64,000 bases of DNA from Candidatus Anstonellales archaeon. Its GTDB lineage: Archaea; Micrarchaeota; Micrarchaeia; Anstonellales; J096. Position 1 is the stretch's first letter, and the number at the start of each line of letters is the position of its first letter. Below the pieces are notes generated by a model. The model did no database searches. It saw only the letters and a program-made list of their open reading frames with translations, and was not told the DNA's origin. Where the stretch lies: assembly GCA_038896535.1 (NCBI GenBank), contig JAWACY010000002.1, positions 176,445 to 240,444 on the forward strand. Reading direction: 5' to 3'. The position numbers and the translations under genes are program-made. Positions 20,916 through 64,000 of this stretch are shown here, in pieces.

Positions 20916-20997
20916 CAAAATGCTTTTATATTTTATTTCTTTTATTCCACATTTACTCTCCTCACCTCAACAAAATAATAACAGCTGCTGGATATTT

Positions 20998-21448
20998 GTA
21001 AGAATAGCCATGTATAATCAAATTTGCCTTCTTACGAAGGGCTTAATAGGGGCTGGAAGTTTGTAAGAAGGCGTGTGTATAAGGGTTAGCGCCTTCTTAC
21101 AGGGGAGGATAATTGTAAGAAGGCATGTGTAATAGTCAATTTGCCTTCTTACGAAGGGCTTAATAGGGGCTGGAAGTTTGTAAGAAGGCGTGTGTATAAG
21201 GGTTAGCGCCTTCTTACCACAGGGAATAATAGCGGCTGGATAATTGTAAGAAGGCATGTGTAATAGGGTTAGTGCCTTCTTACCGGGAAGTTTGTAAGAA
21301 GGCGTGTGTAATAGGGTTAGTGCCTTCTTCAATAAGCGTATAATAGGGGCGGGATGTTTGTAAGAAGGCGTGTATATAAGGGTATTGCCTTCTTACAGGG
21401 GGGGAAGATTGTAAGAAGGCATGTTTATAAGGGTTAGCGCCTTCTTAC
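20998..21448 (-). repeat. Palindromic tandem array 1: 8 units of GTAAGAAGGC-N17/18-GCCTTCTTAC with 10-28 nt linkers
   Basis: Units at 20998 (degenerate), 21063, 21115, 21180, 21246, 21294, 21360, 21411; opposite orientation to arrays 2 and 3. Confidence 0.97.
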
Positions 21449-21466
21449 CACAAGAGTAAAGTAAAA

Positions 21467-21474
21467 TTTATATA
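21467..21474. promoter_or_regulatory. Probable bidirectional TATA box (PCNA on +, repeat array 1 on -)
   Basis: TTTATATA with purine-rich BRE-like flanks on both strands (AAAGTAAAA on +, AGAAGAA on -). Confidence 0.5.
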
Positions 21475-21505
21475 TTCTTCTATTAAAATTTATTTGGTGC
21501 TTATT

Positions 21506-22246
21506 ATGAAACTAACATATCCTTCTGCAAAGGGTTTTGCTAAGGCATTAGAAGTTGTATGGAATATAGTAGATGAAGGGACTTTTAAAGTATCAAAAGA
21601 GGGCCTAAGACTGCTTGCAATGGATCCCAGCCAGATATCAATGATCGTTTTTACAATGCCAAAAGAACTTTTTTCTGAATTTGATATTACAACAGAGACA
21701 AAAAATGTTGGGCTTGATTTGGCTTATACAAAAACAATACTAAAAACGGCAAGACAGCAAGAAACAATAACTCTGGAAGAAAAGGAAAAGAAGCTTGTAA
21801 TAACATTCAAAAGCCAGAAATCAAGAAGGCAGTTCGTTGTGCCATTGCTTGATCTTGGAGAGGGGCCAACAAAAGAGCCAAATATAGATTATAATAATTT
21901 TGTAATAATAAAAGCAAGCGCACTGGATGGCATAGTAAATGATGCATCCTTAGCAAGCCATTATGTAAAATTAGTAATAAGCAATGATGGCCTTGAAATG
22001 TATGCAAAAAGTGAAACAGGAGAAAGCAATGCAGTTTTTGAAAAAGGAGATGAATTAATTGATATAAAGGCAGAAAATGGGGCAAAGGCCTTATACCCAG
22101 TCAAATATCTGAATGATATAATAAAAAGTTTGCCAAAAGATTCTGAAGTAAAATTATATATAGAGACTGATAAACCATTAAAGTTGGAATCTAATGTAGA
22201 AGGAGCAAAAATAAGATATTATTTAGCTCCAGCAAGCGAGTCATAA
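21506..22246 (+). CDS. pcn: DNA polymerase sliding clamp PCNA
   Basis: LAMDPSQISM, KPLKL, RYYLAP; GGTG SD before ATG 21506. Confidence 0.95.
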   Translation: MKLTYPSAKGFAKALEVVWNIVDEGTFKVSKEGLRLLAMDPSQISMIVFTMPKELFSEFDITTETKNVGLDLAYTKTILKTARQQETITLEEKEKKLVITFKSQKSRRQFVVPLLDLGEGPTKEPNIDYNNFVIIKASALDGIVNDASLASHYVKLVISNDGLEMYAKSETGESNAVFEKGDELIDIKAENGAKALYPVKYLNDIIKSLPKDSEVKLYIETDKPLKLESNVEGAKIRYYLAPASES

Positions 22247-22291
22247 GAATTTTAAATTCTTTGTAATATTTAAATATAAAGGTGGTATTAG

Positions 22292-22693
22292 ATGGACCTA
22301 ACTAGAATAAGCCCTTATAAACACATATTAAAGACAGCAGAAATGCTTAAAGCAATGAGCTTAGAAAAGCCAAGCTTTGTTGATTTTGTTAAATCTGGGG
22401 CACATAAACAAAGGCCGCCAGAGCATGAGGACTTTTTTTATATTAGGGCTGCTGCAATATTAAGAAAAGCTGCGAAAATGCCTGTTGGCGTAAATAGATT
22501 GAGAAAGGCATTTGGAGGAAGGAAAACAGGAAGGGTTAAACCAGAGCATAAAAGAAAAGCTGGGGGAAAAATAATAAGAGCAGCATTACAAAATCTTGAA
22601 AAGCTTGGATTATTGAAAAAAACTGAAAAAGGCAGAGTTATAACGAACAAGGGCATGCAATTGCTTTCAAAAGCAGCAAAGGAAGCTAGATAA
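22292..22693 (+). CDS. rps19e: 30S ribosomal protein S19e (eS19)
   Basis: FVKSGAHKQRPP, YIRAAAILRK, IIRAALQNLE. Confidence 0.95.
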   Translation: MDLTRISPYKHILKTAEMLKAMSLEKPSFVDFVKSGAHKQRPPEHEDFFYIRAAAILRKAAKMPVGVNRLRKAFGGRKTGRVKPEHKRKAGGKIIRAALQNLEKLGLLKKTEKGRVITNKGMQLLSKAAKEAR

Positions 22694-22694
22694 A

Positions 22695-22952
22695 ATGACA
22701 AAAGAGGATGAAATGGAAAAAATTGCAAAAATAAAGGCAACTGCATTGCAGTTATTCGAGCCAGAGGCATATACGAGATTTATGACTGTTATGCAGTATA
22801 ACAGCGAAAAAGCAGTAAAGGCACTTGAATTATGTATGCAGTATTTCTACAAAAAACAAAGGAAAATAAATGATGAAGAATTAAAAAATATATTATTTTA
22901 TTTATCGCAAAATGAAAGGAAAGAGGGAAGCATACAAATAAAAAGAAAATGA
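22695..22952 (+). CDS. PDCD5/TFAR19-like DNA-binding protein
   Basis: EPEAYTR, KINDEELKNIL, IQIKRK; conserved position after eS19. Confidence 0.8.
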   Translation: MTKEDEMEKIAKIKATALQLFEPEAYTRFMTVMQYNSEKAVKALELCMQYFYKKQRKINDEELKNILFYLSQNERKEGSIQIKRK

Positions 22953-22991
22953 ATAAAAAAATAAATGATTATGATTTTATAGGGTGTGAAT

Positions 22992-23168
22992 ATGGCAAAA
23001 AATAACCTTGGAATAAAAATGAGACTTGCAAAAAAAACAAGGCAGAATAGGAGAGTGCCAGTATTTGCTTTTTTGAGAAGTAAAAGAAAAGTAAGGAATA
23101 ATCCAAAACAAAGGAATTGGAGGACAGATAAAATAGGCACTAGAAATTGGAGAAATAGAGGTAGATAA
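22992..23168 (+). CDS. rpl39e: 50S ribosomal protein L39e (eL39)
   Basis: RLAKKTRQNRRVPVF, RNWR. Confidence 0.93.
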   Translation: MAKNNLGIKMRLAKKTRQNRRVPVFAFLRSKRKVRNNPKQRNWRTDKIGTRNWRNRGR

Positions 23169-23169
23169 A

Positions 23170-23445
23170 ATGACAGATAAAAAAGATAAAGGTAAAGAAA
23201 ATGAAGAGATTGTTATGACAATAAATTTAAGGAGAGCGTATGAAAAGCCAAGGACAAAAAGGTTAAAAACTGCTGTAAAACTGTTGAGAGATGCAGTAAA
23301 AAGGTTTGCAAAAGTTAATGTTGTAAAAATATCAAACAGCATTAATCAGTTGTTCTTCAAAAAAAGCATAAAAAAGCCACCAAGAAAATTGAAAATAAAG
23401 GTAATAAAAGAAAAAGAGCAAGGAAGAGTTGAAAAAATAGAATGA
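23170..23445 (+). CDS. rpl31e: 50S ribosomal protein L31e (eL31)
   Basis: TINLRRA..KPRTKR, KPPRKLKIKV. Confidence 0.93.
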   Translation: MTDKKDKGKENEEIVMTINLRRAYEKPRTKRLKTAVKLLRDAVKRFAKVNVVKISNSINQLFFKKSIKKPPRKLKIKVIKEKEQGRVEKIE

Positions 23446-24104
23446 TAAAAAAAACTTCTTATTTTGGAAATCCACACATAGGGATTTTCTGCTTTTGTAA
23501 TGATAAGGTTGCTATATTGCCCTATAACAATAAGTTTTCAGCAATTATTAAAGAAGCGCTTGATGTTGAAATTATAGAAACAACAATATCACAAAGCCCA
23601 TTTATTGGTATTTATACTGCTGGCAATAATGATATATTGATAATGCCAGACATAATCTCAAGTTCTGAACTTACGAAAATAAAAAATGGCCTGGATGGAA
23701 TTGCTGATATTTATTTAATAAAAACAAACATGAATGCACTTGGCAATAATATTGTTGTAGGAAAAAAGGCAATACTTATAAATCCAAATCTCATGCCTTA
23801 TAAAGATAGCATAGAAGACATTTTTGGCATTGAGACAATAGCAATTGATATAGCAGGGTATAAAACAATTGGCTCCTTGCTTGTTACTAATGATAAAGGT
23901 TTTGTTGTCTCATACAAAGCAGGTTTAGAAGATTTGGCGCGTTTAGAAAAAATACTTGGAATAAGAGGAAAAAGAACAAGCATAAATTTAGGCCTTGCTT
24001 TTCCTAAATTGGGTATAATAGCAAATAAAAAAGGCATTGTATTTGGTGAATTAACAACTGGAATAGAAATAGCCAATGTAATTGAAGGGCTTGATGTTCA
24101 ATAA
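23442..24104 (+). CDS. eif6: Translation initiation factor 6 (aIF6)
   Basis: GNPHIGIF, ALGNNI, TNDKG, GELTTGIEI. Confidence 0.93.
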   Translation: MIKKTSYFGNPHIGIFCFCNDKVAILPYNNKFSAIIKEALDVEIIETTISQSPFIGIYTAGNNDILIMPDIISSSELTKIKNGLDGIADIYLIKTNMNALGNNIVVGKKAILINPNLMPYKDSIEDIFGIETIAIDIAGYKTIGSLLVTNDKGFVVSYKAGLEDLARLEKILGIRGKRTSINLGLAFPKLGIIANKKGIVFGELTTGIEIANVIEGLDVQ

Positions 24105-24119
24105 TATTTTGGTGGTATT

Positions 24120-24440
24120 ATGCAAGAAATAACATATGAAGATTTCTTGAAAATGAATCTTGTTGTTGGTAAAATAATAAAAGCAGAAAGATTGGGCAAT
24201 AAGATAATAAAGCTCGAAGTTGATATTGGCAATGAAATAAGAGTTATTGCTGCTGGCATTGCACATTATTACAAAGCTGATGAAATTATAGGAAAAAATG
24301 TCATTATTGTAGAAAACATGAGGCCAAAAACAATAATGGGCATAGAAAGCAAAGGCATGTTGCTTGCATGCATTGATGGAGATAATGCAGCATTAATAAC
24401 AACAGATAAAGAAGTTAAAGCAGGCACAAAAGTATCTTAA
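24120..24440 (+). CDS. Stand-alone tRNA-binding OB-fold protein (Trbp111/CsaA/MetRS C-terminal-like)
   Basis: ITYEDFLKMNLVVGKI, NMRPKTIMGIESKGMLLA. Confidence 0.9.
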   Translation: MQEITYEDFLKMNLVVGKIIKAERLGNKIIKLEVDIGNEIRVIAAGIAHYYKADEIIGKNVIIVENMRPKTIMGIESKGMLLACIDGDNAALITTDKEVKAGTKVS

Positions 24441-24502
24441 AAATGTGGATGGTTTAAATATTAAACCTACATATTTAAATTTTTAATCTGGGCTATTATG
24501 AT

Positions 24503-25963
24503 ATGGCTAAAAGTAATGATATAAATGAATATAACGAGAATATCGAAGAAAATATTGATAATATCAATAATGCGTTGGTAAGCAATAATTATAAATGGGG
24601 CTTTAAGGATGATGCTGAATACGAATACAAAGAAAATCTAAAATTGGGAGAGAGCCTCGTAAAGAATATAAGCAGAATAAAAAAAGAGCCAGATTGGATG
24701 CTTGAATTAAGATTAAAGGCAATTAAAGCATTTTTTCATTTAGAGCTGCCAAAATGGATGCATAATATAGATATTAATTATGATGATATAACATATTATG
24801 CAAAACCGAAAATAAACAGTAATGCAAAAGCTAGTTCATGGGATGATGTGCCTGGTTATATTAAAAATACATTTGAAAAACTTGGAATTCCAGAAGCTGA
24901 AAAGAAAGTGCTTGCTGGTGTAGCAGCACAATATGAAAGCGAAGTTGTATATGAAAAAGTAAGGAGTGATCTGGAAAAATATGGAGTAATATTTTGCAGC
25001 ATGGACAGGGCATTAAAAGAACATGAAAACATTGTAAAGGCATATTTTTCAAAACTTGTGCCGTTTTATGATAATAAGTTTGCTGCATTGAATACTGCAT
25101 TATGGAGTGGTGGGAGCTTTTTGTACATACCAGAAAACGTAAAAATTGAGCAGCCATTACAAGCATATTTCAGAATAAACATGCAGGGCATTGGCCAGTT
25201 TGAAAGAACATTGATAATAGTTGAAGAAGGAGGAGAAGCTCAATACATAGAAGGCTGTTCAGCGCCAGTATATAGCAAAGCATCTTTGCATGCTGCTGTT
25301 GTTGAAGTATTTGCAAAAAGGCATTCAAAAGTCAGATATACAACAGTGCAGAATTGGAGTAAAAATGTTTATAATTTAGTAACAAAGAGAAGCATTGCTT
25401 ATGAAAATGCATACATAGAATGGCTTGATGGGAATATAGGAAGCAAATTAACTGCTAAATATCCATGCATAATACTTGCTGAGCCAAATGCAAAAGGTAA
25501 AATCATAAGCATAGCATATGCTGGGCAGGGGCAAATAATAGATAATGGGGCAAAAATAATACATTTAGCAAAAAATACAAGCTCAAACGTTATAAGTAAA
25601 AGCATTTCAAGCAATGGGGGAAGGGCAAGCTATAGAGGGCTCGTTAAGGTAATAAAAGGGGCAAAAAAGAGCAAGGTTTCTGTTAATTGTGATGCATTAT
25701 TGCTTGATGAAAATAGCAAAACAGATACATATCCAAATATACATATAGCAGAAAAGGACATTTCAATAGCGCATGAAGCAAGGGTAGGAAAAATAAGTGA
25801 TGAGCAGCTTTTTTACTTAATGAGCAGGGGAATAGATAAAGAACAAGCAAGGACTTTAGTTGTTATGGGCTTTCTAGAAGAATTTACAAAAGAACTGCCT
25901 TTGGAATATGCAGTTGAATTAAACAGGCTCATAAGCCTTGAAATGGAAGGGAGCGTTGGCTAA
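24503..25963 (+). CDS. sufB: Fe-S cluster assembly protein SufB
   Basis: QFERTLI, YIEGCSAP, LHAAVVE, HEARVGKI..EQLFYLMSRG. Confidence 0.95.
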   Translation: MAKSNDINEYNENIEENIDNINNALVSNNYKWGFKDDAEYEYKENLKLGESLVKNISRIKKEPDWMLELRLKAIKAFFHLELPKWMHNIDINYDDITYYAKPKINSNAKASSWDDVPGYIKNTFEKLGIPEAEKKVLAGVAAQYESEVVYEKVRSDLEKYGVIFCSMDRALKEHENIVKAYFSKLVPFYDNKFAALNTALWSGGSFLYIPENVKIEQPLQAYFRINMQGIGQFERTLIIVEEGGEAQYIEGCSAPVYSKASLHAAVVEVFAKRHSKVRYTTVQNWSKNVYNLVTKRSIAYENAYIEWLDGNIGSKLTAKYPCIILAEPNAKGKIISIAYAGQGQIIDNGAKIIHLAKNTSSNVISKSISSNGGRASYRGLVKVIKGAKKSKVSVNCDALLLDENSKTDTYPNIHIAEKDISIAHEARVGKISDEQLFYLMSRGIDKEQARTLVVMGFLEEFTKELPLEYAVELNRLISLEMEGSVG

Positions 25964-26989
25964 ATGGAAGAAATGAAAATAGATGGCATGGAACAATATT
26001 TAAGAAAAAGCGCTTATTATGATGAGTATACAGCATTAAAAAGCACAGAATTTTATGAACTCATAAGAGCTTTCAATATAGAATTTTTAAAAAAGAAAAA
26101 TGAAATGAAAAACAAAAAAAACAAAATAAATGACAACATTGCCAATCATTTAAAAAGCGATGATAATTATGAGACACAATCTTTGATAGATGATTATTTG
26201 AATGCTTTAAATAAAGAAACAATGCAAATAGAAAAAACAAAAGCAAAAAATTTTGAAATAAATGAAAATAAAGGAGGGGCTTTGAGAAAAGAATATGTAA
26301 TAAAGCATGATGCAATATTAAACATTTTACATGATAAAAATTTTATTGGAACCGAGCATTTTTTTATATCAGATGGCATCAATGTTGAATTAAACATCAT
26401 TTATTATGCTGATTTTATTTATGCTTCCAGATTTTTCTATATTGGTAATGATGCAGATGTTAAAATAAATATTATGGGCATGAATAAGCATTTTATTGAG
26501 AACAGAACATTCATAAATTTTAATGGGATTAATGCAAATGCATTTGAGAATATTTCAATTTTATCATCAAATGGAAGCATAAGAACTTATACGCAATTAA
26601 ATCACAAAAAACAGCAAAACAAATCAGATAGTAAAGTGCACATAGCATTATTTAACAATGCCTCTTGCTCAATAGAAGGCATGATAAAAATATATGAAAA
26701 TGCATTCAATAGTGATGCATTTCTTGACCAAAAAGCACTCGTCTGCTCAGATAATGCAAAAGCTTTTAGCTATCCATCTCTTGAAATAGCAAACAATAAT
26801 GTGAGGGCAACTCATTCTTCATCAATAATGAGGGTTGAAGAAGAAGACCTCTTTTATCTTAGAACAAGGGGCTTAAACTACAAGCAAGCATATGCAGAAA
26901 TAGTAAAAAGCTTCCTTGGTTTTAATGATATTCTATTGGAGCGTTTAAACAAAAAAATTGATGAGAATATTTATTCACTTATAAGTTGA
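25964..26989 (+). CDS. sufD: Fe-S cluster assembly protein SufD-like
   Basis: PSLEI.NNNV.ATHSS, DLFYLRTRGL. Confidence 0.85.
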   Translation: MEEMKIDGMEQYLRKSAYYDEYTALKSTEFYELIRAFNIEFLKKKNEMKNKKNKINDNIANHLKSDDNYETQSLIDDYLNALNKETMQIEKTKAKNFEINENKGGALRKEYVIKHDAILNILHDKNFIGTEHFFISDGINVELNIIYYADFIYASRFFYIGNDADVKINIMGMNKHFIENRTFINFNGINANAFENISILSSNGSIRTYTQLNHKKQQNKSDSKVHIALFNNASCSIEGMIKIYENAFNSDAFLDQKALVCSDNAKAFSYPSLEIANNNVRATHSSSIMRVEEEDLFYLRTRGLNYKQAYAEIVKSFLGFNDILLERLNKKIDENIYSLIS

Positions 26990-27009
26990 TATAGCTTGAA
27001 GGTGATCAA

Positions 27010-27750
27010 ATGGCATTAGAAATAAAAAATTTACATGTATATGTTGAAGATAAGCATATAATAAAGGGCATAAATGCAAAATTTGATGATGGAAAGGTTA
27101 TTGCTATAATGGGGCCAAATGGTTCTGGAAAAACAAGTTTAGGCTATGCAATTGCCGGGCATCCCAGCTATGTTGCAAGTGGGGAAGTTATATACAATAG
27201 TAAAAATATTTTAGAGTTAAAGCCAGAAGAAAGGGCAAAAGAAGGCATATTTCTCAGCTTTCAAACGCCCCCTTTTCTTGAAGGCATAACAATACAGCAA
27301 CTTTTAAAGAAATCATTTATAGCAAGGTTTAACCTAGAAGAACAAAGCATGGAAACATATAGAAGGCTCAATGAAGAAATAAATAATGCTATTAATATAT
27401 TAGGGTTAAATAAAGATTTCATAAAAAGAGAAGTAAATAGAAATTTTTCTGGCGGGGAAAAGAAAAAAGCAGAAATGTTGCAAATGCTTATATTAAAACC
27501 AAACCTTGCATTGATAGATGAAATAGATTCTGGCTTGGATGTAGATTCACTAAGATTAGTCACAAATGCAATAAATAAACTTAGAGATAACAAAAGGATA
27601 TTTATTGTTATAACACATTATAACAGAATTCTGTCATATATAAAACCTGATGTTGTATTAATAATGAAAGATGGCATGATAAAAAAGCAAGGCGATGAAA
27701 GGCTGGCAAAAGAGATAGAAGAAATTGGTTATGCTGGATTAGATAATTGA
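27010..27750 (+). CDS. sufC: Fe-S cluster assembly ATPase SufC
   Basis: GPNGSGKT, AGHP.Y, FSGGEKKK, DEIDSGLD, ITHY. Confidence 0.95.
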   Translation: MALEIKNLHVYVEDKHIIKGINAKFDDGKVIAIMGPNGSGKTSLGYAIAGHPSYVASGEVIYNSKNILELKPEERAKEGIFLSFQTPPFLEGITIQQLLKKSFIARFNLEEQSMETYRRLNEEINNAINILGLNKDFIKREVNRNFSGGEKKKAEMLQMLILKPNLALIDEIDSGLDVDSLRLVTNAINKLRDNKRIFIVITHYNRILSYIKPDVVLIMKDGMIKKQGDERLAKEIEEIGYAGLDN

Positions 27751-27833
27751 ATTAGATAATTAGATTAGAAACTAGCTGACTTAATTTTAGCAGTTAAGTT
27801 AAGGTTTTAAACACTTATTTAAAATTTTATTTC

Positions 27834-29000
27834 ATGAGCAAGGCATTATATTTAAGAAAGGTCATAGAATCGGCAAATATATATAATAAAACATTCGAAA
27901 TAAATGAAAATGAAATATATGGCAGCTCTCCTCCTTCAATCTTTATAGGAAGCTATGGTTATCCATATGTTTATGCAGGGCCTTTGATATCAAAGCATGA
28001 AGAATGCAGTATTTTTGACACGCCAGAGCATTGGCTAAAAGAAAATCTTAAACAACATGACATAATAAAATTTAGATTAAGTCTTTTAAGAGGGAAGAAA
28101 AAAACAAGAGTAAGTGAAAATACAAAATTCATTGAAAATTTAAAAGAGTTAGCATTAGCTAATAAAGAGCCATATACAATAATGGAAATAAAGAACATGA
28201 GTAGCAATATTAATTTTAATAAAGAAATTGAGGAGCATGCACTATATGGCCCATCAGCAGAGATAAATAATTTTTATATTGATAATACTTATTGGAATCC
28301 AAAATTAGAGAAATTTTATTACGATAGAGATGCAGAAGCAAGCACAGCAGTAAAAGAGCTTTATTTAAATGGCGTGCCTTTTTCTTCAATAACAAAATGT
28401 TTTTCTGCTGGTTGCTTTGGGATAGAGAAAAACAGAAAACTCGTGCCAACAAGATGGGCAATAACTGCTGTTGATTCAATGCTTGGGAATATGCTGCTTA
28501 AGAATGTTAGACAATATGAGATAATTGACGAATATAGGATTTATAACTACAATGCTCTGTTCAATAGCTATTACATACTTCTTGTGCCATCTCATTGGAT
28601 TTATGAGTGGTTTGAAGCATTTTTACACATTTATGGAGACGAAGAGCTGATATTTAATGATGCTGAATTTCATAAAAAAACTGGCTATTCTTCAGTCGGG
28701 GGTTGTTTTTATACATGCAGGTTTGCTGTTTTAGAAGCATTGGAAAGAATGAAAATACAGGCTGGTTGTTTTGTTTTCAGAGAGGCTTATAAAGGGTATG
28801 TTCCTTTAGGTGTTTTTAATGTCAGGGAATGCGTAAGAGAAGCTATGAAAAAGCAGTATTTATCTTTTAATACAATGAACGAGGCACTTTCCTACCTAAA
28901 ATCAAAGTTGAAAATTCCAATGCAAAGATATCTGAAACAAAGCGTGCTATTAAATCATTATATAAGTAAAAGGCAGTTTGGGCTGAGTGCTTATCTTTAA
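27834..29000 (+). CDS. nreA: PCNA-interacting DNA repair protein Nre
   Basis: GSSPPSIFIG.YGYP, LVPTRWAITAVD, C-terminal PIP-like QFGLSAYL. Confidence 0.9.
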   Translation: MSKALYLRKVIESANIYNKTFEINENEIYGSSPPSIFIGSYGYPYVYAGPLISKHEECSIFDTPEHWLKENLKQHDIIKFRLSLLRGKKKTRVSENTKFIENLKELALANKEPYTIMEIKNMSSNINFNKEIEEHALYGPSAEINNFYIDNTYWNPKLEKFYYDRDAEASTAVKELYLNGVPFSSITKCFSAGCFGIEKNRKLVPTRWAITAVDSMLGNMLLKNVRQYEIIDEYRIYNYNALFNSYYILLVPSHWIYEWFEAFLHIYGDEELIFNDAEFHKKTGYSSVGGCFYTCRFAVLEALERMKIQAGCFVFREAYKGYVPLGVFNVRECVREAMKKQYLSFNTMNEALSYLKSKLKIPMQRYLKQSVLLNHYISKRQFGLSAYL

Positions 29001-29111
29001 TTCAGCACTTAATATCTTCATCATTCTATGCATATGCATAGTTCAGCGTTCTCGCCTTCATCACATTTTGTAAATTAATTAGAAGGCATTAAAAATGCAA
29101 TAGAAAGAAAT

Positions 29112-29843
29112 TTATCCAGGCAGTAATCTAAGCTCATCAAACTTCTTACCGCCTTTATTAATCTGTATAAGGACTGAGTTCACAAATTTAAACTCTATGT
29201 ATAGTTTTCCTTTTGCTGGTATTACAAATGACCCTGCTGGATAAACAACCATTAAATCATCATCAATATAAGATACAAATTGAATTTTTACATCTGTGCC
29301 AGGCTTTAACCTTATTTCATTATTAGATAGGCCATTATCTGTTATGTTTATTATTAAAACATCACTTGGCAGCTCCTTTTCTCTTTGTTTAACTTCAAAC
29401 ATTATTTCTTGACTCCAATAAGGCTTTGTTTTTATAAACCCATAAACTCTGGCATAATATGTGCCAGTTTCATTTACATTTATCTGCCTTGTCATTAATC
29501 CTGGCGCATTGATTTCAAAAGGTAAAGTTTGAAACTCATAATCATTAATACTAGATGGGAATACTACGCTGTTTTTGCCATAAACAATTATTAAAGGCAC
29601 AACAGTCGGGCTTGAAGCATAAACTTGTGCTGTTATGTTTATTGGCTCGTCTAAAAAGTACTCTTTCTTGTAATCAGTTATAATAATGTTATAAAACTCT
29701 TCTTCTTGTTTTTCTGGCAGTGTTTGGCTTTCATTTAATGATTCATTTTTCTGCTGTTGCTGTTGCTGCTGGCCAAAACAACCAAAAAGCATTAATAACA
29801 ATACCAGCAATAAAGAAATAGCAAAAATGTTGTATTTTTGCAT
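29112..29843 (-). CDS. Putative lipoprotein with poly-Q linker
   Basis: Hydrophobic signal ending LFGC, then Q8 tract and Ig-like beta-rich domains. Confidence 0.7.
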   Translation of the reverse strand: MQKYNIFAISLLLVLLLMLFGCFGQQQQQQQKNESLNESQTLPEKQEEEFYNIIITDYKKEYFLDEPINITAQVYASSPTVVPLIIVYGKNSVVFPSSINDYEFQTLPFEINAPGLMTRQINVNETGTYYARVYGFIKTKPYWSQEIMFEVKQREKELPSDVLIINITDNGLSNNEIRLKPGTDVKIQFVSYIDDDLMVVYPAGSFVIPAKGKLYIEFKFVNSVLIQINKGGKKFDELRLLPG

Positions 29844-29891
29844 AAAAAAAATAAGAGCAAATATTTAAAATATTTTGGTTTTTATTTTATT

Positions 29892-30497
29892 ATGGACTTT
29901 TTTAAGATTTATACAATATTCATTTTTATATTATTAATTTCTGCGTTTCTCACGCCATTTTTTGCTTTTTATGGATATAAAGGCATAGCATCATTCTTTT
30001 ATAATGCGTTTGCTCTTACATGCCATCAATACCCATATAGAAGCCTTGCCTTATTCCCATTAGATAATAGCATAAATAATTGCATAACAAAAGAAGGCTT
30101 ACCTGTTTTTACTATGTACACAAAAATATTTGCAAAGGACTACAATGGGCCTTTCTACTTCAATAGAAGTGAAATAGGCCTTATAAGGGCGGAGATATGC
30201 ACAAAAATAAAAGAAGAGACTGGAGATATATTGATAGGCTATAAATTTCCTGTATGCGCAAGGGATTTAGGCATTTTCATGGGTATGGCATTAACAACAT
30301 TGGCTTTTAGAAGAGGCGGGGAAAATAAAGATGAAATAAGAATGGCGTATATAATTTTGCTTATTATTCCACTTGCAATAGATGGCTCAGGCCAGTTTCT
30401 AGGATTTTGGGAAAGTACAAATGACATAAGGATCATTACTGGCTTATTATTTGGGGCAGGGATAACGCTTTTATTCGCAAAAACATTGAACTGGTAA
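29892..30497 (+). CDS. DUF2085-type membrane protein
   Basis: CHQ...RS, PVCARDLG, PLAIDG..Q, RIITGLLFG. Confidence 0.85.
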   Translation: MDFFKIYTIFIFILLISAFLTPFFAFYGYKGIASFFYNAFALTCHQYPYRSLALFPLDNSINNCITKEGLPVFTMYTKIFAKDYNGPFYFNRSEIGLIRAEICTKIKEETGDILIGYKFPVCARDLGIFMGMALTTLAFRRGGENKDEIRMAYIILLIIPLAIDGSGQFLGFWESTNDIRIITGLLFGAGITLLFAKTLNW

Positions 30498-30498
30498 T

Positions 30499-31524
30499 AT
30501 GGAAAAATTTTCATCTAGGCTTGCTTTATTGCTTGCCTTAATTGGATCTGCTGTTGGCTTAGGCAACATATGGAGGGTTTCCTATCTTTTCTCATTTTAT
30601 GGCTCTGCTTTTCTTATTTCTTATATTGTATTCGTTATAATAATTGGCTTGCCACTAGTTTATTTAGAATTAAAATTATCGGAGCGTTATAAAAAACCAG
30701 TAAAAGAACTTTATTCCATATTCGCAAAAAAGCATAAATTAAGCTTCTTCAAATATGTGTATTTAATGCCATTAATAACGCTTTTTGTCTTGTCAACATA
30801 TTATTCAATAGTGCTTGGACAAGTTTTGACTAATATTATAGACATACATATTGGTAGCTTATTCCTTGTTTGGGCCATAACTATTTATGCAGTATTAAAT
30901 GGTATAAAAGGCATAGAAAAAGTAAACAATGTATTTATGCTTCTTTTATTTATCTTACTTTTGTATTTATTAGCAAATGTAAAAACTTTGCCAAACCTGT
31001 TAGCATTTGAAACAAAAGATATTATAGAAAGCATAAAACAAGGCTTGGCACACGTTTTATTTTCACTTAGCGTTGGGACTGGCCTTCTCTATACTTATTC
31101 AATATATTCAAAAAAATCAAATACTTTTGAGAATGCATTTATTGTAAGCCTTTCTGATACTCTTGTTGCGATCATATCATTAATTGTTATATTTTCAATG
31201 GCCCCACAACCAGACATATTCGTTGCTTTTGAAGGAATAAAAAACAAGTTTTTTGAAATAGGCCAGCCATTTTTATCATATGTTTTTTTCCTAGCCCTAT
31301 TTTCTGCTGGCATAACATCGTTAATAGCACTTGCAAAATTTTTATATGATAATGGCAATATTTACACACTACTTACTGCATTTATATCTTCAGTAATTTT
31401 ATATTTTCTCCCTCCTGTTATAATACAATTTCTCGATTCAGTATTAGTAACAAGCCTTTTTTTGATTACATTGCCTATAACAGTCATTGTATTTTTAAGC
31501 CTTTTACGAGATAAAAAAAATTGA
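30499..31524 (+). CDS. Sodium:neurotransmitter symporter (NSS/LeuT-like) family transporter, shortened
   Basis: GSAVGLGNIWR, GIEK, FSLSVG, AGITS. Confidence 0.88.
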   Translation: MEKFSSRLALLLALIGSAVGLGNIWRVSYLFSFYGSAFLISYIVFVIIIGLPLVYLELKLSERYKKPVKELYSIFAKKHKLSFFKYVYLMPLITLFVLSTYYSIVLGQVLTNIIDIHIGSLFLVWAITIYAVLNGIKGIEKVNNVFMLLLFILLLYLLANVKTLPNLLAFETKDIIESIKQGLAHVLFSLSVGTGLLYTYSIYSKKSNTFENAFIVSLSDTLVAIISLIVIFSMAPQPDIFVAFEGIKNKFFEIGQPFLSYVFFLALFSAGITSLIALAKFLYDNGNIYTLLTAFISSVILYFLPPVIIQFLDSVLVTSLFLITLPITVIVFLSLLRDKKN

Positions 31525-31539
31525 TAATTTAAATACTTT

Positions 31540-32244
31540 CTATTCATACATGCTGTTTTCTTTATCATGTTTTGCTATTTCCTCTTCTGCTTTAATTACC
31601 TCCTGCTCTGAAAGCAAAAGCTCCCTTGTATCTATATTAAAAGAGTACATTTTCCCAATCGTTTTTAGCAATTTCTCTGTTGCTTTTGCATCAGACAAGC
31701 TTTGCTCCTGGTGTGCTATTAATGCATAAGTTGGAAAACCAGAGCTCTGTGCCTTTATATATAATAAAGATCCTGCCCCTGTTATTGCCCCTTCATCAAA
31801 TGCATTTATTTTCAAATTATGAAATTTTTCCTTTAAATAATCTTTACTTGCAATATAATAAATTCCCTTTTCCCCTTCAAGCGTCGATAATAAAATGCCT
31901 ATTTCAGAAACATTGAAGTCTTTTGCTAAATCCAATATTGCATCTGCTGTTTTATTTGTTGCTGATAATGGCAAGCCTATTTCAGATAGCACTACAATCA
32001 TATTTAACTTTTCATTTGCCATTATTCTAACTGGAGGCATTGCTATGCTATTATGTACAGATATAACAGGAGCAAATAAATCACTACTAAAATAACCTAT
32101 AATTTCAAAATTAAGTTTTTCAGTTAAATATAAGCCAGCAACTATTGGAACTAAACTTGGAGAAGGCATACAAACAATTAATGTCGGTTTTTTCAATTTA
32201 ATTTCTGTTGCTCTTTTAAAATATATAATATCAACTGATGCCAT
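31540..32244 (-). CDS. Proteasome assembly chaperone (PAC2 family)
   Basis: PTLI..PS.SLV, PPVRI, GAITGAGSLL, IDT.EL. Confidence 0.82.
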   Translation of the reverse strand: MASVDIIYFKRATEIKLKKPTLIVCMPSPSLVPIVAGLYLTEKLNFEIIGYFSSDLFAPVISVHNSIAMPPVRIMANEKLNMIVVLSEIGLPLSATNKTADAILDLAKDFNVSEIGILLSTLEGEKGIYYIASKDYLKEKFHNLKINAFDEGAITGAGSLLYIKAQSSGFPTYALIAHQEQSLSDAKATEKLLKTIGKMYSFNIDTRELLLSEQEVIKAEEEIAKHDKENSMYE

Positions 32245-32302
32245 ATGTTAATTCAATAATAAATATTTATAAGCCTTTCACTATAAAAATAAATACTAAA
32301 AT

Positions 32303-32401
32303 GGGCCAGTAGCTCAGCCTGGCGGAGCGACGGTCTTATAAGATCAGCTCTGCTACATCTAAGACAGCCGTAGGTCCTGGGTTCAAATCCCAGCTGGCCC
32401 A
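32303..32401 (+). tRNA. tRNA-Ile(TAT) with 25-nt BHB intron at 37/38 (intron 32341..32365)
   Basis: GGGCCAG/CTGGCCC acceptor stem, ACGGT-CT-TAT-A^A-GCCGT, BHB helix CTTA/TAAG with 3-nt bulges. Confidence 0.92.
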
Positions 32402-32403
32402 TA

Positions 32404-32639
32404 GTAAGAAGGCGCTAACCCTATTATGCACGCCTTCTTACAATCATCCCGTCCCTATTATTCCCTGTAGTAAGAAGGCACTAACCCTATTATGCGCGCC
32501 TTCTTACAATCATCCAACCACTTTTATTCCCTGTAGTAAGAAGGCAATGCCCTTATATATGCGCCTTCTTACAATCATCCCGTCCCTAATATACGCTTGT
32601 GGTAAGAAGGCGCTAACCCTATTACACACGCCTTCTTAC
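32404..32639 (+). repeat. Palindromic tandem array 2: 4 units, exact 66-bp period, starting 2 nt after tRNA-Ile
   Basis: GTAAGAAGGC arms at 32404, 32470, 32536, 32602; a degenerate linker follows to ~32667. Confidence 0.97.
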
Positions 32640-32889
32640 AAACTTCCAAACCCTATTATAGACTTTGGTTGGGGGGGTAATGGTAGTGGAAATGCTTCTT
32701 AATCTTAATCTTAATCATTTAATCTTTTTGATAGGAAAGGGCATGAGTGGAAAAGCCATAATGGCTTGATAAGAATCAAAAGGCACAATAATCAAATAAT
32801 CAAATAACAACACAATGGCATTAAATGGCATTAAATTAAGATCAATAGCATTAAATAGTATTAATATCAATAATAAAACACAATAATTT

Positions 32890-33756
32890 TTACATAAGCA
32901 TTGCAAAATCCTCATCTAGGTTTCTGTTAAATATATTGTTATTTTTTATCATTGGGCCCCTATCAAGTACTTTGAAATCTTCTAAGAAAGTTTTCCTTTG
33001 CTTCTGCCAGAATATGCCTACAGGAACTTTTTCAAAATTATTTGTGAAAGGCTCTAAGCAATAATGCAAAGCTTTTTGAAAATCTTGCCTGTCATTATCT
33101 TTTACATAATAAATGTGCTGCTTATACCATTCATAAGTATTCTGCTTATCCCATGTTATGCAGGGTTGGTAACATTCTATAAAAGCAAAACCTTTATGAT
33201 TAATGCCCTCTTTTATTACTTCCTTTAAATGCATAACATCTCCAGAATAAGTTGCTGCAACAAAACTTGCTCCTGCAATTAAGGCAGTTGCACAAGGCAT
33301 GAATTCATCTATTGTATTCCCTTTAAGATGTGTTTTGCTTTTCATACCTTTTTTTGTTGTTGGGCTGCTCTGGCCAGTTGTTAATGAGAAGTAATAATTA
33401 TTTTGCACTATGTATGTTATATCATTGTTCCTCCTGCACGAATGTAAGAAATGATTCCCTCCCTCTGAAAAGCCATCTCCATCTCCTCCTATAGCTACAA
33501 CAGTAAGTTCATGATTACTTAACTTTATTGCTTCTGCTGCTGGTAAAAGTCTGCCATGCAAGCCTTCAAAACCATATGCCCTTATATAATGTGGTATTTT
33601 ACTCCCGCAACCTATTCCAGATACTATGCATGTTTTATGGCTTTCTAAACCAAGCTCTACCAATGCCTGTTTTACAGCTGCTAATATACCAAAATCTCCA
33701 CATCCCAAGCACCATTGTGTCCTTTCTTTAACATTAAATTCTTCTAATTTGCTCAT
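32890..33756 (-). CDS. 2-oxoacid:ferredoxin oxidoreductase beta subunit
   Basis: WCLGCGD, SGIGC, LHGR, GGDGD...NN TPP-binding motif, GQSSPTT. Confidence 0.93.
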   Translation of the reverse strand: MSKLEEFNVKERTQWCLGCGDFGILAAVKQALVELGLESHKTCIVSGIGCGSKIPHYIRAYGFEGLHGRLLPAAEAIKLSNHELTVVAIGGDGDGFSEGGNHFLHSCRRNNDITYIVQNNYYFSLTTGQSSPTTKKGMKSKTHLKGNTIDEFMPCATALIAGASFVAATYSGDVMHLKEVIKEGINHKGFAFIECYQPCITWDKQNTYEWYKQHIYYVKDNDRQDFQKALHYCLEPFTNNFEKVPVGIFWQKQRKTFLEDFKVLDRGPMIKNNNIFNRNLDEDFAMLM

Positions 33757-57735: not shown

Positions 57736-58434
57736 ATGAAAGAAAGGGCATTGAGAGAAAAGTTTATGCAAATAGCAAAACAAAAACTTGAAGAAAAAAG
57801 AAAAAGGAATGATCTTTATATAATACAATTAAATAGGACATTAGATGATTTATATGGAATAAAAAATAAGCTTGAAGAAAGGATTAATGAATGGGCTTAT
57901 ATATATGGCATTAAGGAGAAGGGCAAAAGGCTGGTAGAAAAAATAAAAGAGCTGAAACCTGATAAAGATTGGATAATGGAAAAAGAAAGAATAGAAGCAA
58001 TAAAAAATACAGCTGCTTTAATTGAAAAAGTAGAAGAAGAGATAGAGAATAAAGAGAATTTAATTGAAAAATGCACTGCTCAGATATTGCCAAATGCATA
58101 TGCCTTAATAGGAGGTAAGCTAGTTGCAAAATTCTTATCTCTTGCTGGAAGCATTGAGAAATTAGCCGAAATGCCAGCAAGTACTATACAAGTTTTAGGT
58201 GCAGAAAGGGCATTGTTTAAGCATTTAAGAGCAAAAACAAAACCGCCAAAACATGGTATATTGCTATTAAGTCATTACGTTAATAAATTACCAAAGCATA
58301 AAAGGGGAAAAATGGCGAGAGCTCTAGCTTCAAAATTGGCAATAGCATTCAAAGCAGATTTATCTGGGCATTTTATAGGAAAAGAACTTAAAGATGCTGT
58401 AGAAAAAAGGTTCAAAGAGCTGTCAAAAAAATAA
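57736..58434 (+). CDS. nop5: Nop5 (Nop56/58) Nop-domain protein, short N-terminus
   Basis: PASTIQVLGAERALF, PPKHG, RGKMARALASKLAIA. Confidence 0.88.
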   Translation: MKERALREKFMQIAKQKLEEKRKRNDLYIIQLNRTLDDLYGIKNKLEERINEWAYIYGIKEKGKRLVEKIKELKPDKDWIMEKERIEAIKNTAALIEKVEEEIENKENLIEKCTAQILPNAYALIGGKLVAKFLSLAGSIEKLAEMPASTIQVLGAERALFKHLRAKTKPPKHGILLLSHYVNKLPKHKRGKMARALASKLAIAFKADLSGHFIGKELKDAVEKRFKELSKK

Positions 58435-63117: not shown

Positions 63118-63621
63118 ATGAAAAAATTATTAAAAAATATAGTGGCCATTTTAATTTTATTTTCTTTATTCATGTTACTTTTAATTTCTACATCAAAAAA
63201 TGTTTATGAATTTTCAATAGTTGACGGAGATACTGTAAAAAATAGCCATTCATATTTTAGGGCAATTTATATAGATACACCAGAATTAAAAGAACAAAAG
63301 GAATGGGTTAAGAATATAATAAATAATGAAAGCTGCTTATCGTATTATGGGAAAAAAGCAAAAGAATTTATTACGAGCAAAGCACAAGATTTTTATGTAT
63401 TTTATTCTGAATTTTTTAAAGATAGGTATGGCAGATTTCTTGCTGAATTCAATTATTATAATGGAACAAGCTTAGAGCTTGACATGGTTAGAAATGGGCT
63501 TGCTTTATGTTATTACAGAAACGCAGTTTTTTATTTACCAAAAACGTATGAATGTTTAAAAATTGAGCAGGTAGCAAAAAATAGAAACATTGGGCTTTGG
63601 TCTTGCATTAAGCAGGGGTAG
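63118..63621 (+). CDS. Thermonuclease (SNase-like) with N-terminal membrane anchor
   Basis: VDGDT, IDTPE, DRYGR.LA, MVRNGLA, GLWS. Confidence 0.9.
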   Translation: MKKLLKNIVAILILFSLFMLLLISTSKNVYEFSIVDGDTVKNSHSYFRAIYIDTPELKEQKEWVKNIINNESCLSYYGKKAKEFITSKAQDFYVFYSEFFKDRYGRFLAEFNYYNGTSLELDMVRNGLALCYYRNAVFYLPKTYECLKIEQVAKNRNIGLWSCIKQG

Positions 63622-63697
63622 CCAAGTCTGGTCAAAGGCGCTAGCTTCAGGGGCTAGTCCCTTAGTGGGTTCGTGGGTTCAAATCCCACCCCCTGCA
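63612..63697 (+). tRNA. tRNA-Leu(CAG)
   Basis: GCAGGGG/CCCCTGC acceptor stem, CTAGC-TT-CAG-GG-GCTAG, long variable arm, TTCAAAT. Confidence 0.95.
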
Positions 63698-63699
63698 TA

Positions 63700-64000
63700 G
63701 TAAGAAGGCAATGCCCTTATATATGCGCCTTCTTACAATCTTCCAACCACTTTTATTACCTGTGGTAAGAAGGCACTAACCCTATTATGCGCGCCTTCTT
63801 ACAATCATCCAACCACTTTTATTACCTGTGGTAAGAAGGCACTAACCCTATTATGCGCGCCTTCTTACAATCATCCAACCACTTTTATTACCTGTGGTAA
63901 GAAGGCACTAACCCTATTATGCGCGCCTTCTTACAATCATCCAACCACTTTTATTACCTGTGGTAAGAAGGCACTAACCCTATTATGCGCGCCTTCTTAC
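63700..64000 (+). repeat. Palindromic tandem array 3: at least 5 units (65-66 bp period), starting 2 nt after tRNA-Leu, running to the window end
   Basis: GTAAGAAGGC arms at 63700, 63765, 63831, 63897, 63963; units 2-5 identical. Confidence 0.97.

Follow-up and report, generated by a model that had tools for sequence, protein, structure and literature searches.

The 752-kb genome of the source archaeon (hereafter G000; 31-34% GC, 91% complete) carries a family of short intergenic hairpin repeats that stand in tandem arrays, mostly at the 3' ends of tRNA genes, and whose parts have been shuffled into a patchwork. That the genome is archaeal is evident from its tRNA introns and from its PCNA, Nop5, fibrillarin and RadA. 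On balance, we consider this family a probably selfish non-coding repeat, predicted to form triplexes, whose patchwork likely arises through host recombination together with local duplication; how a unit is inserted for the first time lies outside the reach of this explanation. The repeat itself, its anchoring to tRNA genes, the recombination signal, the pattern that follows a triplex code, the homologous cores in relatives and the absence of known mobilising genes are directly supported. The window referred to below is the whole stretch of 64,000 nucleotides that was analysed (G000:C2:176445-240444), and coordinates given without a contig name are positions within it. An initial annotation of this DNA had described an array behind a tRNA-Ile gene and its sharing of modules with two other arrays, numbered 1 and 3; the mirror-like third strand, the targeting of tRNA genes across the genome and the homologues in relatives were not part of it.

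The anchor of this array, tRNA-Ile(UAU) (32303..32401, plus strand; predicted by ARAGORN with introns and matched by Rfam RF00005 at 56.3 bits), contains a 25-nt intron in the anticodon loop at approximately 32341-32365. The UAU anticodon is rare in archaea, and an intron-bearing tRNA-Ile(UAU) occurs in most of the family (L195-L209). The array begins 2 nt past the tRNA discriminator and runs on the plus strand, with the arm pairs GTAAGAAGGC/GCCTTCTTAC starting at 32404, 32470, 32536 and 32602, an exact 66-bp period. The hairpin of unit 1 (32404..32441; 10-bp arms, fold z -5.6) is followed by linker 1 (32442..32469), the head of which (32443-32449) is the mirror of the purine tract in the stem. 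The hairpin of unit 2 (32470..32507) opens a tract of 59 nt (32470-32528) that is identical to array 3 and is the longest exact tract in common with any other array, and linker 2 (32508..32535) matches an array 3 linker except at two positions. In unit 3 (32536..32572) the loop is of a type found in four arrays, while linker 3 (32573..32601) joins a head like that of linker 1 to a 'GCTT'-type tail known from other arrays. The hairpin of unit 4 (32602..32639) is succeeded by a decayed terminal linker (32640..32667) similar to the linkers of array 1. Loops measure 18, 18, 17 and 18 nt and the linkers between units 28, 28 and 29 nt, and apart from the 59-nt tract the array is made up of mosaic pieces of at most 29 nt, each matching many arrays. 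The arms did not arise by chance, because 104 exact copies are present genome-wide compared with about 0.7 expected.

The initial description of this locus holds in its details: the four units, the exact period, the invariant arms and the quoted loops and linkers are all present, two loops recur in array 3 in reverse order, the linker said to be shared with array 3 is confirmed by a comparison of units, and so is the likeness of the linker tail to array 1 linkers. What does not generalise is the suggestion that a 29-nt linker compensates for a 17-nt loop and so preserves the period, since a 17-nt loop is combined with a 28-nt linker, for a period of 65 bp, in six of the eight units that have one; both 29-nt linkers come after the same loop (Fisher p 0.08). 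Genome-wide, 20 of 51 unit intervals are 66 bp, within a range of 46-71 bp.

In total, 68 parsed units in 16 intergenic arrays were found in G000, counting the end of contig C2 and the start of contig C4 as one array. Thirteen of the 16 lie 3' of tRNA genes (Leu 5/5, Ile 2/2, Arg 3/4, Thr 2/3 and Lys 1/2), all in the same direction, and 12 begin between -1 and +4 nt from the discriminator. Judged by the asymmetry of the loops, all units within an array are arranged head-to-tail, and decay affects 5/12 last units and 1/13 first units. There are 44 distinct loops among the 68 units, one of them present six times, and loop matches outside the arrays never exceed 14 nt. The bases that precede the arm vary (CATA, TGTA, TGTG, CCAG or CTTG), and the arm's own GTAA is paired within the stem. 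The neighbouring C1 arrays at 31.7, 42 and 64 kb (Leu, Arg and Arg) have in common a variant of the arm pair that contains a compensatory A-T base. At the RNA level, the units all fold into stable hairpins (z -4.8 to -5.6), and an Rfam search of the trailers returned matches to tRNAs only and none to the repeat. Array 3 (63700..64000, plus strand), anchored by tRNA-Leu(CAG) (63612..63697, plus strand; Rfam search), consists of near-homogeneous units and runs off the contig end; its continuation is probably the beginning of contig C4. No tRNA accompanies three arrays, array 1 and the array at C1:320 kb among them. The site of the latter is occupied in the congener G070 by tRNA-Ala(CGC) and an array on the same strand, next to the same adjoining gene; array 1 and the array at C1:166.8 kb are without any link to a tRNA. 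Array 1 (20990..21448, minus strand), which has seven full units and a decayed one, lies between a TYW1-like gene and the PCNA gene; its site is empty in the congener G049, and neither a tRNA nor an array was found at this site in the PCNA loci of 14 relatives.

The mosaic results from recombination. Among 21 distinct units of the main family with 28-nt linkers (of 24), the share of incompatible site pairs climbs from 16% at 1-3 nt through 36% to 70% at 9-20 nt and 80% beyond 20 nt, and the increase with distance (rho 0.43, permutation p 2e-4) was attained by none of 165 clonal simulations, run with and without block mutations and matched for informative sites, although some of these did reach 80% incompatibility. 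Distances between loops show no correlation with distances between linkers (Mantel rho -0.03 over the same 21 units), the distances of linker heads and tails are unrelated (rho -0.02) and those of the two loop halves only weakly linked (0.30), which indicates that switches also occur inside loops and linkers. In line with this, the three types of loop 5' half are all joined to the same set of 3' ends, and linker heads are joined to either type of tail. The nearest relative of a unit lies in another array for 31/51 units and in the same array for 20/51, so conversion and local duplication both act. The exchange of modules between distant arrays that had been proposed initially is therefore borne out, as is the expected incongruence between loops and linkers, but the arms are not the only places of exchange, and simple local duplication, put forward as the explanation that would compete with exchange, acts as well. 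How alike two arrays are bears no relation to tRNA isotype (Mantel p 0.13-0.22), and its relation to distance along the genome (p 0.017) depends on one subfamily of three arrays (p 0.28 without it). Where the Ile(UAU) trailer of G000 has the array, the orthologous trailer of G049 has another hairpin element, and those of G070 and G034 have nothing similar.

The linker head mirrors the AAGAAGG tract of the stem, and the variation within it follows a code for triplex formation. Columns that face a G are C in 49-51 of 51 internal units, and columns that face an A vary between A and T only. On the minus strand, 47/51 internal units fit all seven triads of the antiparallel purine code, 0/51 fully fit the pyrimidine code and 2.7% of shuffled linkers fit the purine code, counts that are not independent, as the 51 units reduce to five linker-head haplotypes. 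Of the last units, only 7/16 fit the purine triads. Linkers as short as 8 and 10 nt still keep the mirror head. All four units of the Ile(UAU) array carry a class I motif with loops of 3 and 19-20 nt: in unit 1 a class I purine-motif intrastrand triplex with seven triads and loops of 3 and 20 nt is predicted on the minus strand at 32406..32449, and like triplexes are predicted on the same strand in units 2-4 (32472-32515, 32538-32580 and 32604-32647). The motif was found in 12 of 43 tRNA trailers of G000 (0.1 expected), 7 of 16 in G009, a member of another genus (0.4), 5 of 33 in G070 (0.5) and 1 of 30 in G049 (0.1). Among the G009 hairpins, 29/39 have a mirror tail, eight have one interrupted by an insert and two have no tail. 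The mirror could nevertheless be inherited without being selected. Passages of Holder et al. (PMC4666352) describe purine-motif triplexes as absent in RNA, able to arrest polymerases and marking unstable loci in E. coli.

Arrays follow 13 of the 43 tRNA genes of G000, and the bearers are concentrated in five isotypes (p 5e-5) with alike 3' ends (p 1e-4): 13/24 tRNAs with GGGTTCAAATCCC have an array compared with 0/19 without it. In G070 the arrays cluster on other isotypes (Ala, Val, Ile and Pro; 8/33 tRNAs, p 0.005-0.007, for the 33 examined of 44 Rfam hits), and in G049 elements were seen by eye behind approximately 15 of 30 tRNAs. Spread guided by homology would fit these distributions, because array-bearing tRNAs cluster by the likeness of their 3' ends and the isotypes differ between species. 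A G049 trailer (L261) and a G009 trailer (L227) each close with the 3' end of another tRNA. The syntenic slot has been kept for 1/6 array-bearing tRNAs of G000 and 8/10 array-free ones (Fisher p 0.035), a small, hand-scored and post hoc tally that excludes five matches in opposite orientation as well as rows lacking a tRNA or a hit. Slots with different tRNAs in congeners are Lys-CTT/Arg-TCT (L183 vs L260), Thr-TGT/Ala-GGC (L189 vs L258) and Leu-TAA/Leu-CAA (L188 vs L021/L022).

In G000, the acceptor stem of tRNA-Arg(TCG) (G000:C1:42234-42310; L181, L306) contains a T-T mismatch, and the gene ends in the same bases as tRNA-Ile(UAU), a sequence confirmed by contigs of the runs X1 and X5; possibly, it was overwritten when the array arrived. 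A contig of X5 with a depth of 4.2 (L306:11487-11652) lacks one 71-nt unit of this array, which is either a variant or a collapse by the assembler and is not counted as evidence here. At Leu(TAA) (G000:C1:207430-207512; L188) there is a separate trailer module, in which a copy of a tRNA 3' end is cut off exactly where the array starts; this is the only locus in G000 with a duplicated, truncated T-arm, and similar modules are present at nine other loci (L021, L031, L032, L034, L035, L253, L255, L261 and L266).

The exact arm pattern was found in none of 150 other genomes of the order, and viral contigs gave 0 matches. The related genus represented by G009 retains the loop and linker cores and the plan of a hairpin plus mirror, with entirely different arms. 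Its tRNA-trailing mosaic arrays have G5/C5 arms, and in the one unit tested, comparison with 300 shuffles supports a match of the loop (p 0.017) and the linker (p 0.003) to those of G000, with non-significant reverse-complement controls. When a linker pattern was built from G000 and G009, a search of 176 genomes recovered these two alone, which is circular by design. In G070, two loop ends of 11 nt are identical to those of G000 and are in the opposite orientation, and the elements of G049 occur in both orientations. In four tRNA genes of G009 the T-loop contains insertions of 131, 247, 138 and 169 nt that are filled with units; each has 4/4 central-helix and 3/3 intron-helix pairs of a bulge-helix-bulge (BHB) motif, and their removal, by predicted splicing, would restore the tRNA. 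Two further unit-filled T-loop insertions in G009 were seen by eye; repeat-filled insertions with BHB geometry are located at L225, L229, L237, L242, L327 and L331. T-loop insertions consisting of a 49-51-nt hairpin are present in the Ala, Lys, Gly and Asp tRNAs of G009 (L234, L236, L243 and L244), and one of 55 nt in G061 (L208). A second G009 element, a hairpin of approximately 80 nt, is nested in the units at a fixed point past a C-run, singly or in tandem and in both orientations (L229, L230, L235, L327, L331 and L336).

With regard to genes that could move the repeat, no Y1 transposase was found in G000 at its 91% completeness, and the 19 genomes of the family gave one marginal, partial hit of 31 aa. 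Tyrosine integrases (PF00589, including XerA-like proteins) were found in 0/19 family genomes and in all 14 controls, GIY-YIG proteins in 0/19 family genomes including G000, and reverse transcriptase, NucS and MutS were not found in G000; among the matches listed, no gene family recurs beside the arrays. The recombinase RadA is present in G000 and in 4/4 genomes of the genus. Since the assembly is incomplete, a mobiliser may be missing from it. We hypothesize that the hairpins or triplexes fold in single-stranded DNA, where they would stall replication forks or invite breaks, and that RadA may repair such a break with any of the other arrays, or a tRNA gene whose 3' half is similar, as template. 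The patchwork would then come from template switching among arrays or from gene conversion over short tracts, heteroduplexes would resolve to patches of 8-60 nt where no recognisable mismatch repair acts, and arrays could spread among tRNAs with alike 3' ends, sometimes reshuffling their flanks. However, modules are often identical over no more than 10 nt, which is short for RadA, the elements of G049 seldom carry the motif, and the fairly constant insertion point past the discriminator looks enzyme-made.

This last feature is what would be expected if units were inserted singly by an enzyme specialised for the task, a single-strand nuclease or recombinase of RAYT/HUH-, Ssn- or casposase-like type that an unrecognised host gene or a virus provides and that reads the tRNA T-arm and the hairpin; the mosaic would then form as strands are transferred from one cut unit to another, a mechanism suggested for BIMEs. 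We regard this as a possible, though rather doubtful, alternative to host recombination. The narrow range of starting points at 12 arrays, the cores kept across genera while the arms turn over, as with a motif read by a protein, the two orientations in G049, the more frequent decay of terminal units and the arrays at non-tRNA sites all speak for such an enzyme, but none of the enzyme families searched for offers a candidate in G000, no recurrent gene adjoins the arrays among the matches listed and the switch points do not fall at a single fixed site. Unit-wise insertion as in bacterial BIMEs, suggested initially as another route to the arrays, lacks its enzyme, as G000 has no Y1/RAYT gene. Cas1 was rejected as a mobiliser, since its gene lies in a CRISPR locus that includes a separate array. 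This CRISPR-Cas locus (G000:C2:37561-47967; L172) appears type III-like by eye and comprises cas1, a likely cas2 and seven repeats with six spacers.

Other readings turn on RNA. If the arrays were co-transcribed with the tRNA and processed from its 3' end, they could serve as terminators, stabilisers or small RNAs, and conversion would merely homogenise them. The common direction of all 13 tRNA arrays in G000 and the stable RNA folds are in keeping with this, as is the account in parts of PMC8144298 that tRNA-linked repeats (TLRs) behind E. coli rRNA operons are transcribed and bind proteins. Such a role is nonetheless unlikely, given that congeners differ in the isotypes targeted, orthologous trailers are mostly empty, a homologous loop in G070 runs in the opposite direction, the repeat has no Rfam match and the variation of linker heads fits a triplex code on the strand opposite to the transcribed sense, a form described as absent in RNA in passages of PMC4666352. 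Alternatively, units might travel as RNA, as BHB introns that are excised, re-inserted in tRNA precursors and copied to DNA, with the 3' arrays as spill-over. The insertions that units fill in the T-loops of four G009 tRNA genes (131-247 nt, with the BHB geometry complete) recall the recurring related introns reported for tRNA genes of Thermoproteales in sections of PMC4090602, but the same sections favour intron gain at the DNA level, no reverse transcriptase was found in G000, its arrays lie outside the tRNA with no array-filled T-loop seen, and units occur in both orientations within the G009 introns, which makes this route very unlikely. The least probable reading, which we consider highly improbable, is that similar arrays were joined chimerically during assembly. 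Contigs of run X1 are identical to the window at 21403-32499 and 32618-33400; the middle of the Ile(UAU) array (32500-32617) is unbridged among the listed contigs, so that the order around unit 3 stands without independent confirmation, and array 3 breaks the assembly. Yet incompatibility already reaches 70% at 9-20 nt, within single 31-mers, X1 contigs also agree over the whole Leu(GAG) array, and the linkers of the Arg(CCT) array are the same in contigs of four runs. Among the contigs, as opposed to reads, of these four runs there is no clear variation of the arrays.

The repeat resembles BIMEs, BoxC/PIT repeats and TLRs and yet fails a defining test of each. With REP/BIME elements, as described in parts of PMC8266576 and PMC3733652, it shares extragenic palindromes of 20-50 nt, variable linkers, tandem mosaic clusters and a species-specific sequence, and it is likewise a short palindrome repeated outside genes. 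The conserved tetranucleotide at the hairpin foot (most often GTAG in these sources) is lacking in G000 units, as are the associated Y1/HUH transposase and the alternation of REP with inverted REP, the G000 units being head-to-tail; targeting of tRNAs and the mirror tail set the G000 repeat apart from the elements as portrayed there. The BoxC/PIT/TM triplex repeats of bacteria covered in passages of Holder et al. 2015 (PMC4666352) are dispersed hairpins with a mirror third strand under the purine-motif code, and the class I order (Hoogsteen, purine, pyrimidine) with seven triads is common to BoxC/PIT-type repeats and G000 units. Three stems of at least 6-7 nt under a triplex code of class I-IV are found in the great majority of internal G000 units, but the Watson-Crick loop of 17-20 nt exceeds the limits given there of 1-6 nt (ITxF) or 0-10 nt (Hoyne). 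The G000 repeat further differs from BoxC/PIT in forming tandem mosaic arrays at tRNA 3' ends, and in an archaeon, with folding that is predicted; the word 'tRNA' does not occur in the main text of that article. E. coli TLRs, in the portions of PMC8144298 that define them, are one to several repeats directly behind tRNA genes, each ending in an 18-19-bp copy of the upstream tRNA 3' end. Trailers in G009 and G049 carry TLR-like copies of tRNA 3' ends, whereas G000 repeats do not end in this way, apart from a loose resemblance of the linker to Leu ends, and G000 units, unlike TLRs, are common to several isotypes and shuffled. G000 linkers do score higher against the ends of array-bearing tRNAs (p 1e-4; 0.008 without Leu), a loose likeness that is confounded by C-richness.

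The transposed tRNA introns of Thermoproteales, reportedly treated by Fujishima et al. in 2010, are similar in that related non-coding sequence lies in unrelated tRNA genes, in G009 within BHB-bounded T-loop insertions. Their recurrence across tRNA genes is described in parts of PMC4090602 and of bioRxiv 10.64898/2026.10.13.758758; the G000 repeat, in contrast to these introns, stands in tandem arrays external to the tRNA, and three of its sites have no tRNA. In staphylococci, STAR elements form interspersed intergenic arrays that expand and contract and occupy different loci in related species, but their spacers, according to PMC3532100, are locus-specific and stable, whereas G000 variants are common to loci and shuffled. 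The arrays are not CRISPR arrays, as their loops recur and the CRISPR array and cas genes of this genome are located elsewhere with an unrelated repeat. Nor are they attL/attR sites or casposons, given the lack of tyrosine recombinases in 19 genomes and the CRISPR-linked Cas1. TIGR-Tas systems combine paired, variable DNA-targeting spacers with a neighbouring Tas gene that encodes a Nop domain. The single Nop protein of G000 was dismissed as a Tas candidate, because it matches Nop5, fibrillarin is present and no array adjoins its gene. This Nop5 homologue (window 57736-58434) is 232 aa long and without the N-terminal part of the solved Nop5, and fibrillarin is encoded elsewhere. The literature searched, which leaves supplements and subscription journals outside its coverage, contains no description of these arrays.

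More speculatively, the repeats might be protein-free, triplex-forming DNA parasites of archaeal tRNA genes, in which the conserved unit is a three-stranded fold and not a sequence, and which provoke their own copying at tRNA 3' halves, shift from 3' trailers to splice-neutral T-loop introns and back, and reshuffle tRNA genes around the chromosome. We put this forward tentatively; if true, archaeal tRNA introns, and genome rearrangements in tiny archaea without integrases and transposases, would have a concrete origin in such parasites. The route by which archaeal tRNA introns arrive is stated to be open in a part of bioRxiv 10.64898/2026.10.13.758758, and a route through this repeat is testable, because one repeat plan trails tRNAs in one genus and fills predicted T-loop introns in another. 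For ectopic conversion, and possibly for the relocation of tRNA genes, the arrays are also a compact natural system, in a genome of 0.75 Mb that lacks known mobile-element enzymes, and they supply biophysics with a candidate archaeal intrastrand-triplex repeat. In a scan of metagenomes, 80 of 121 stretches were examined, which were mostly lone, terminator-like hairpins. Seven AT-rich contigs of one data set (L051, L057, L059, L062, L066, L077 and L101) contain arrays with a 52-bp period and the same arms within a larger dispersed repeat, with no tRNA or clear genes, and these arrays are probably unrelated to the G000 repeat.
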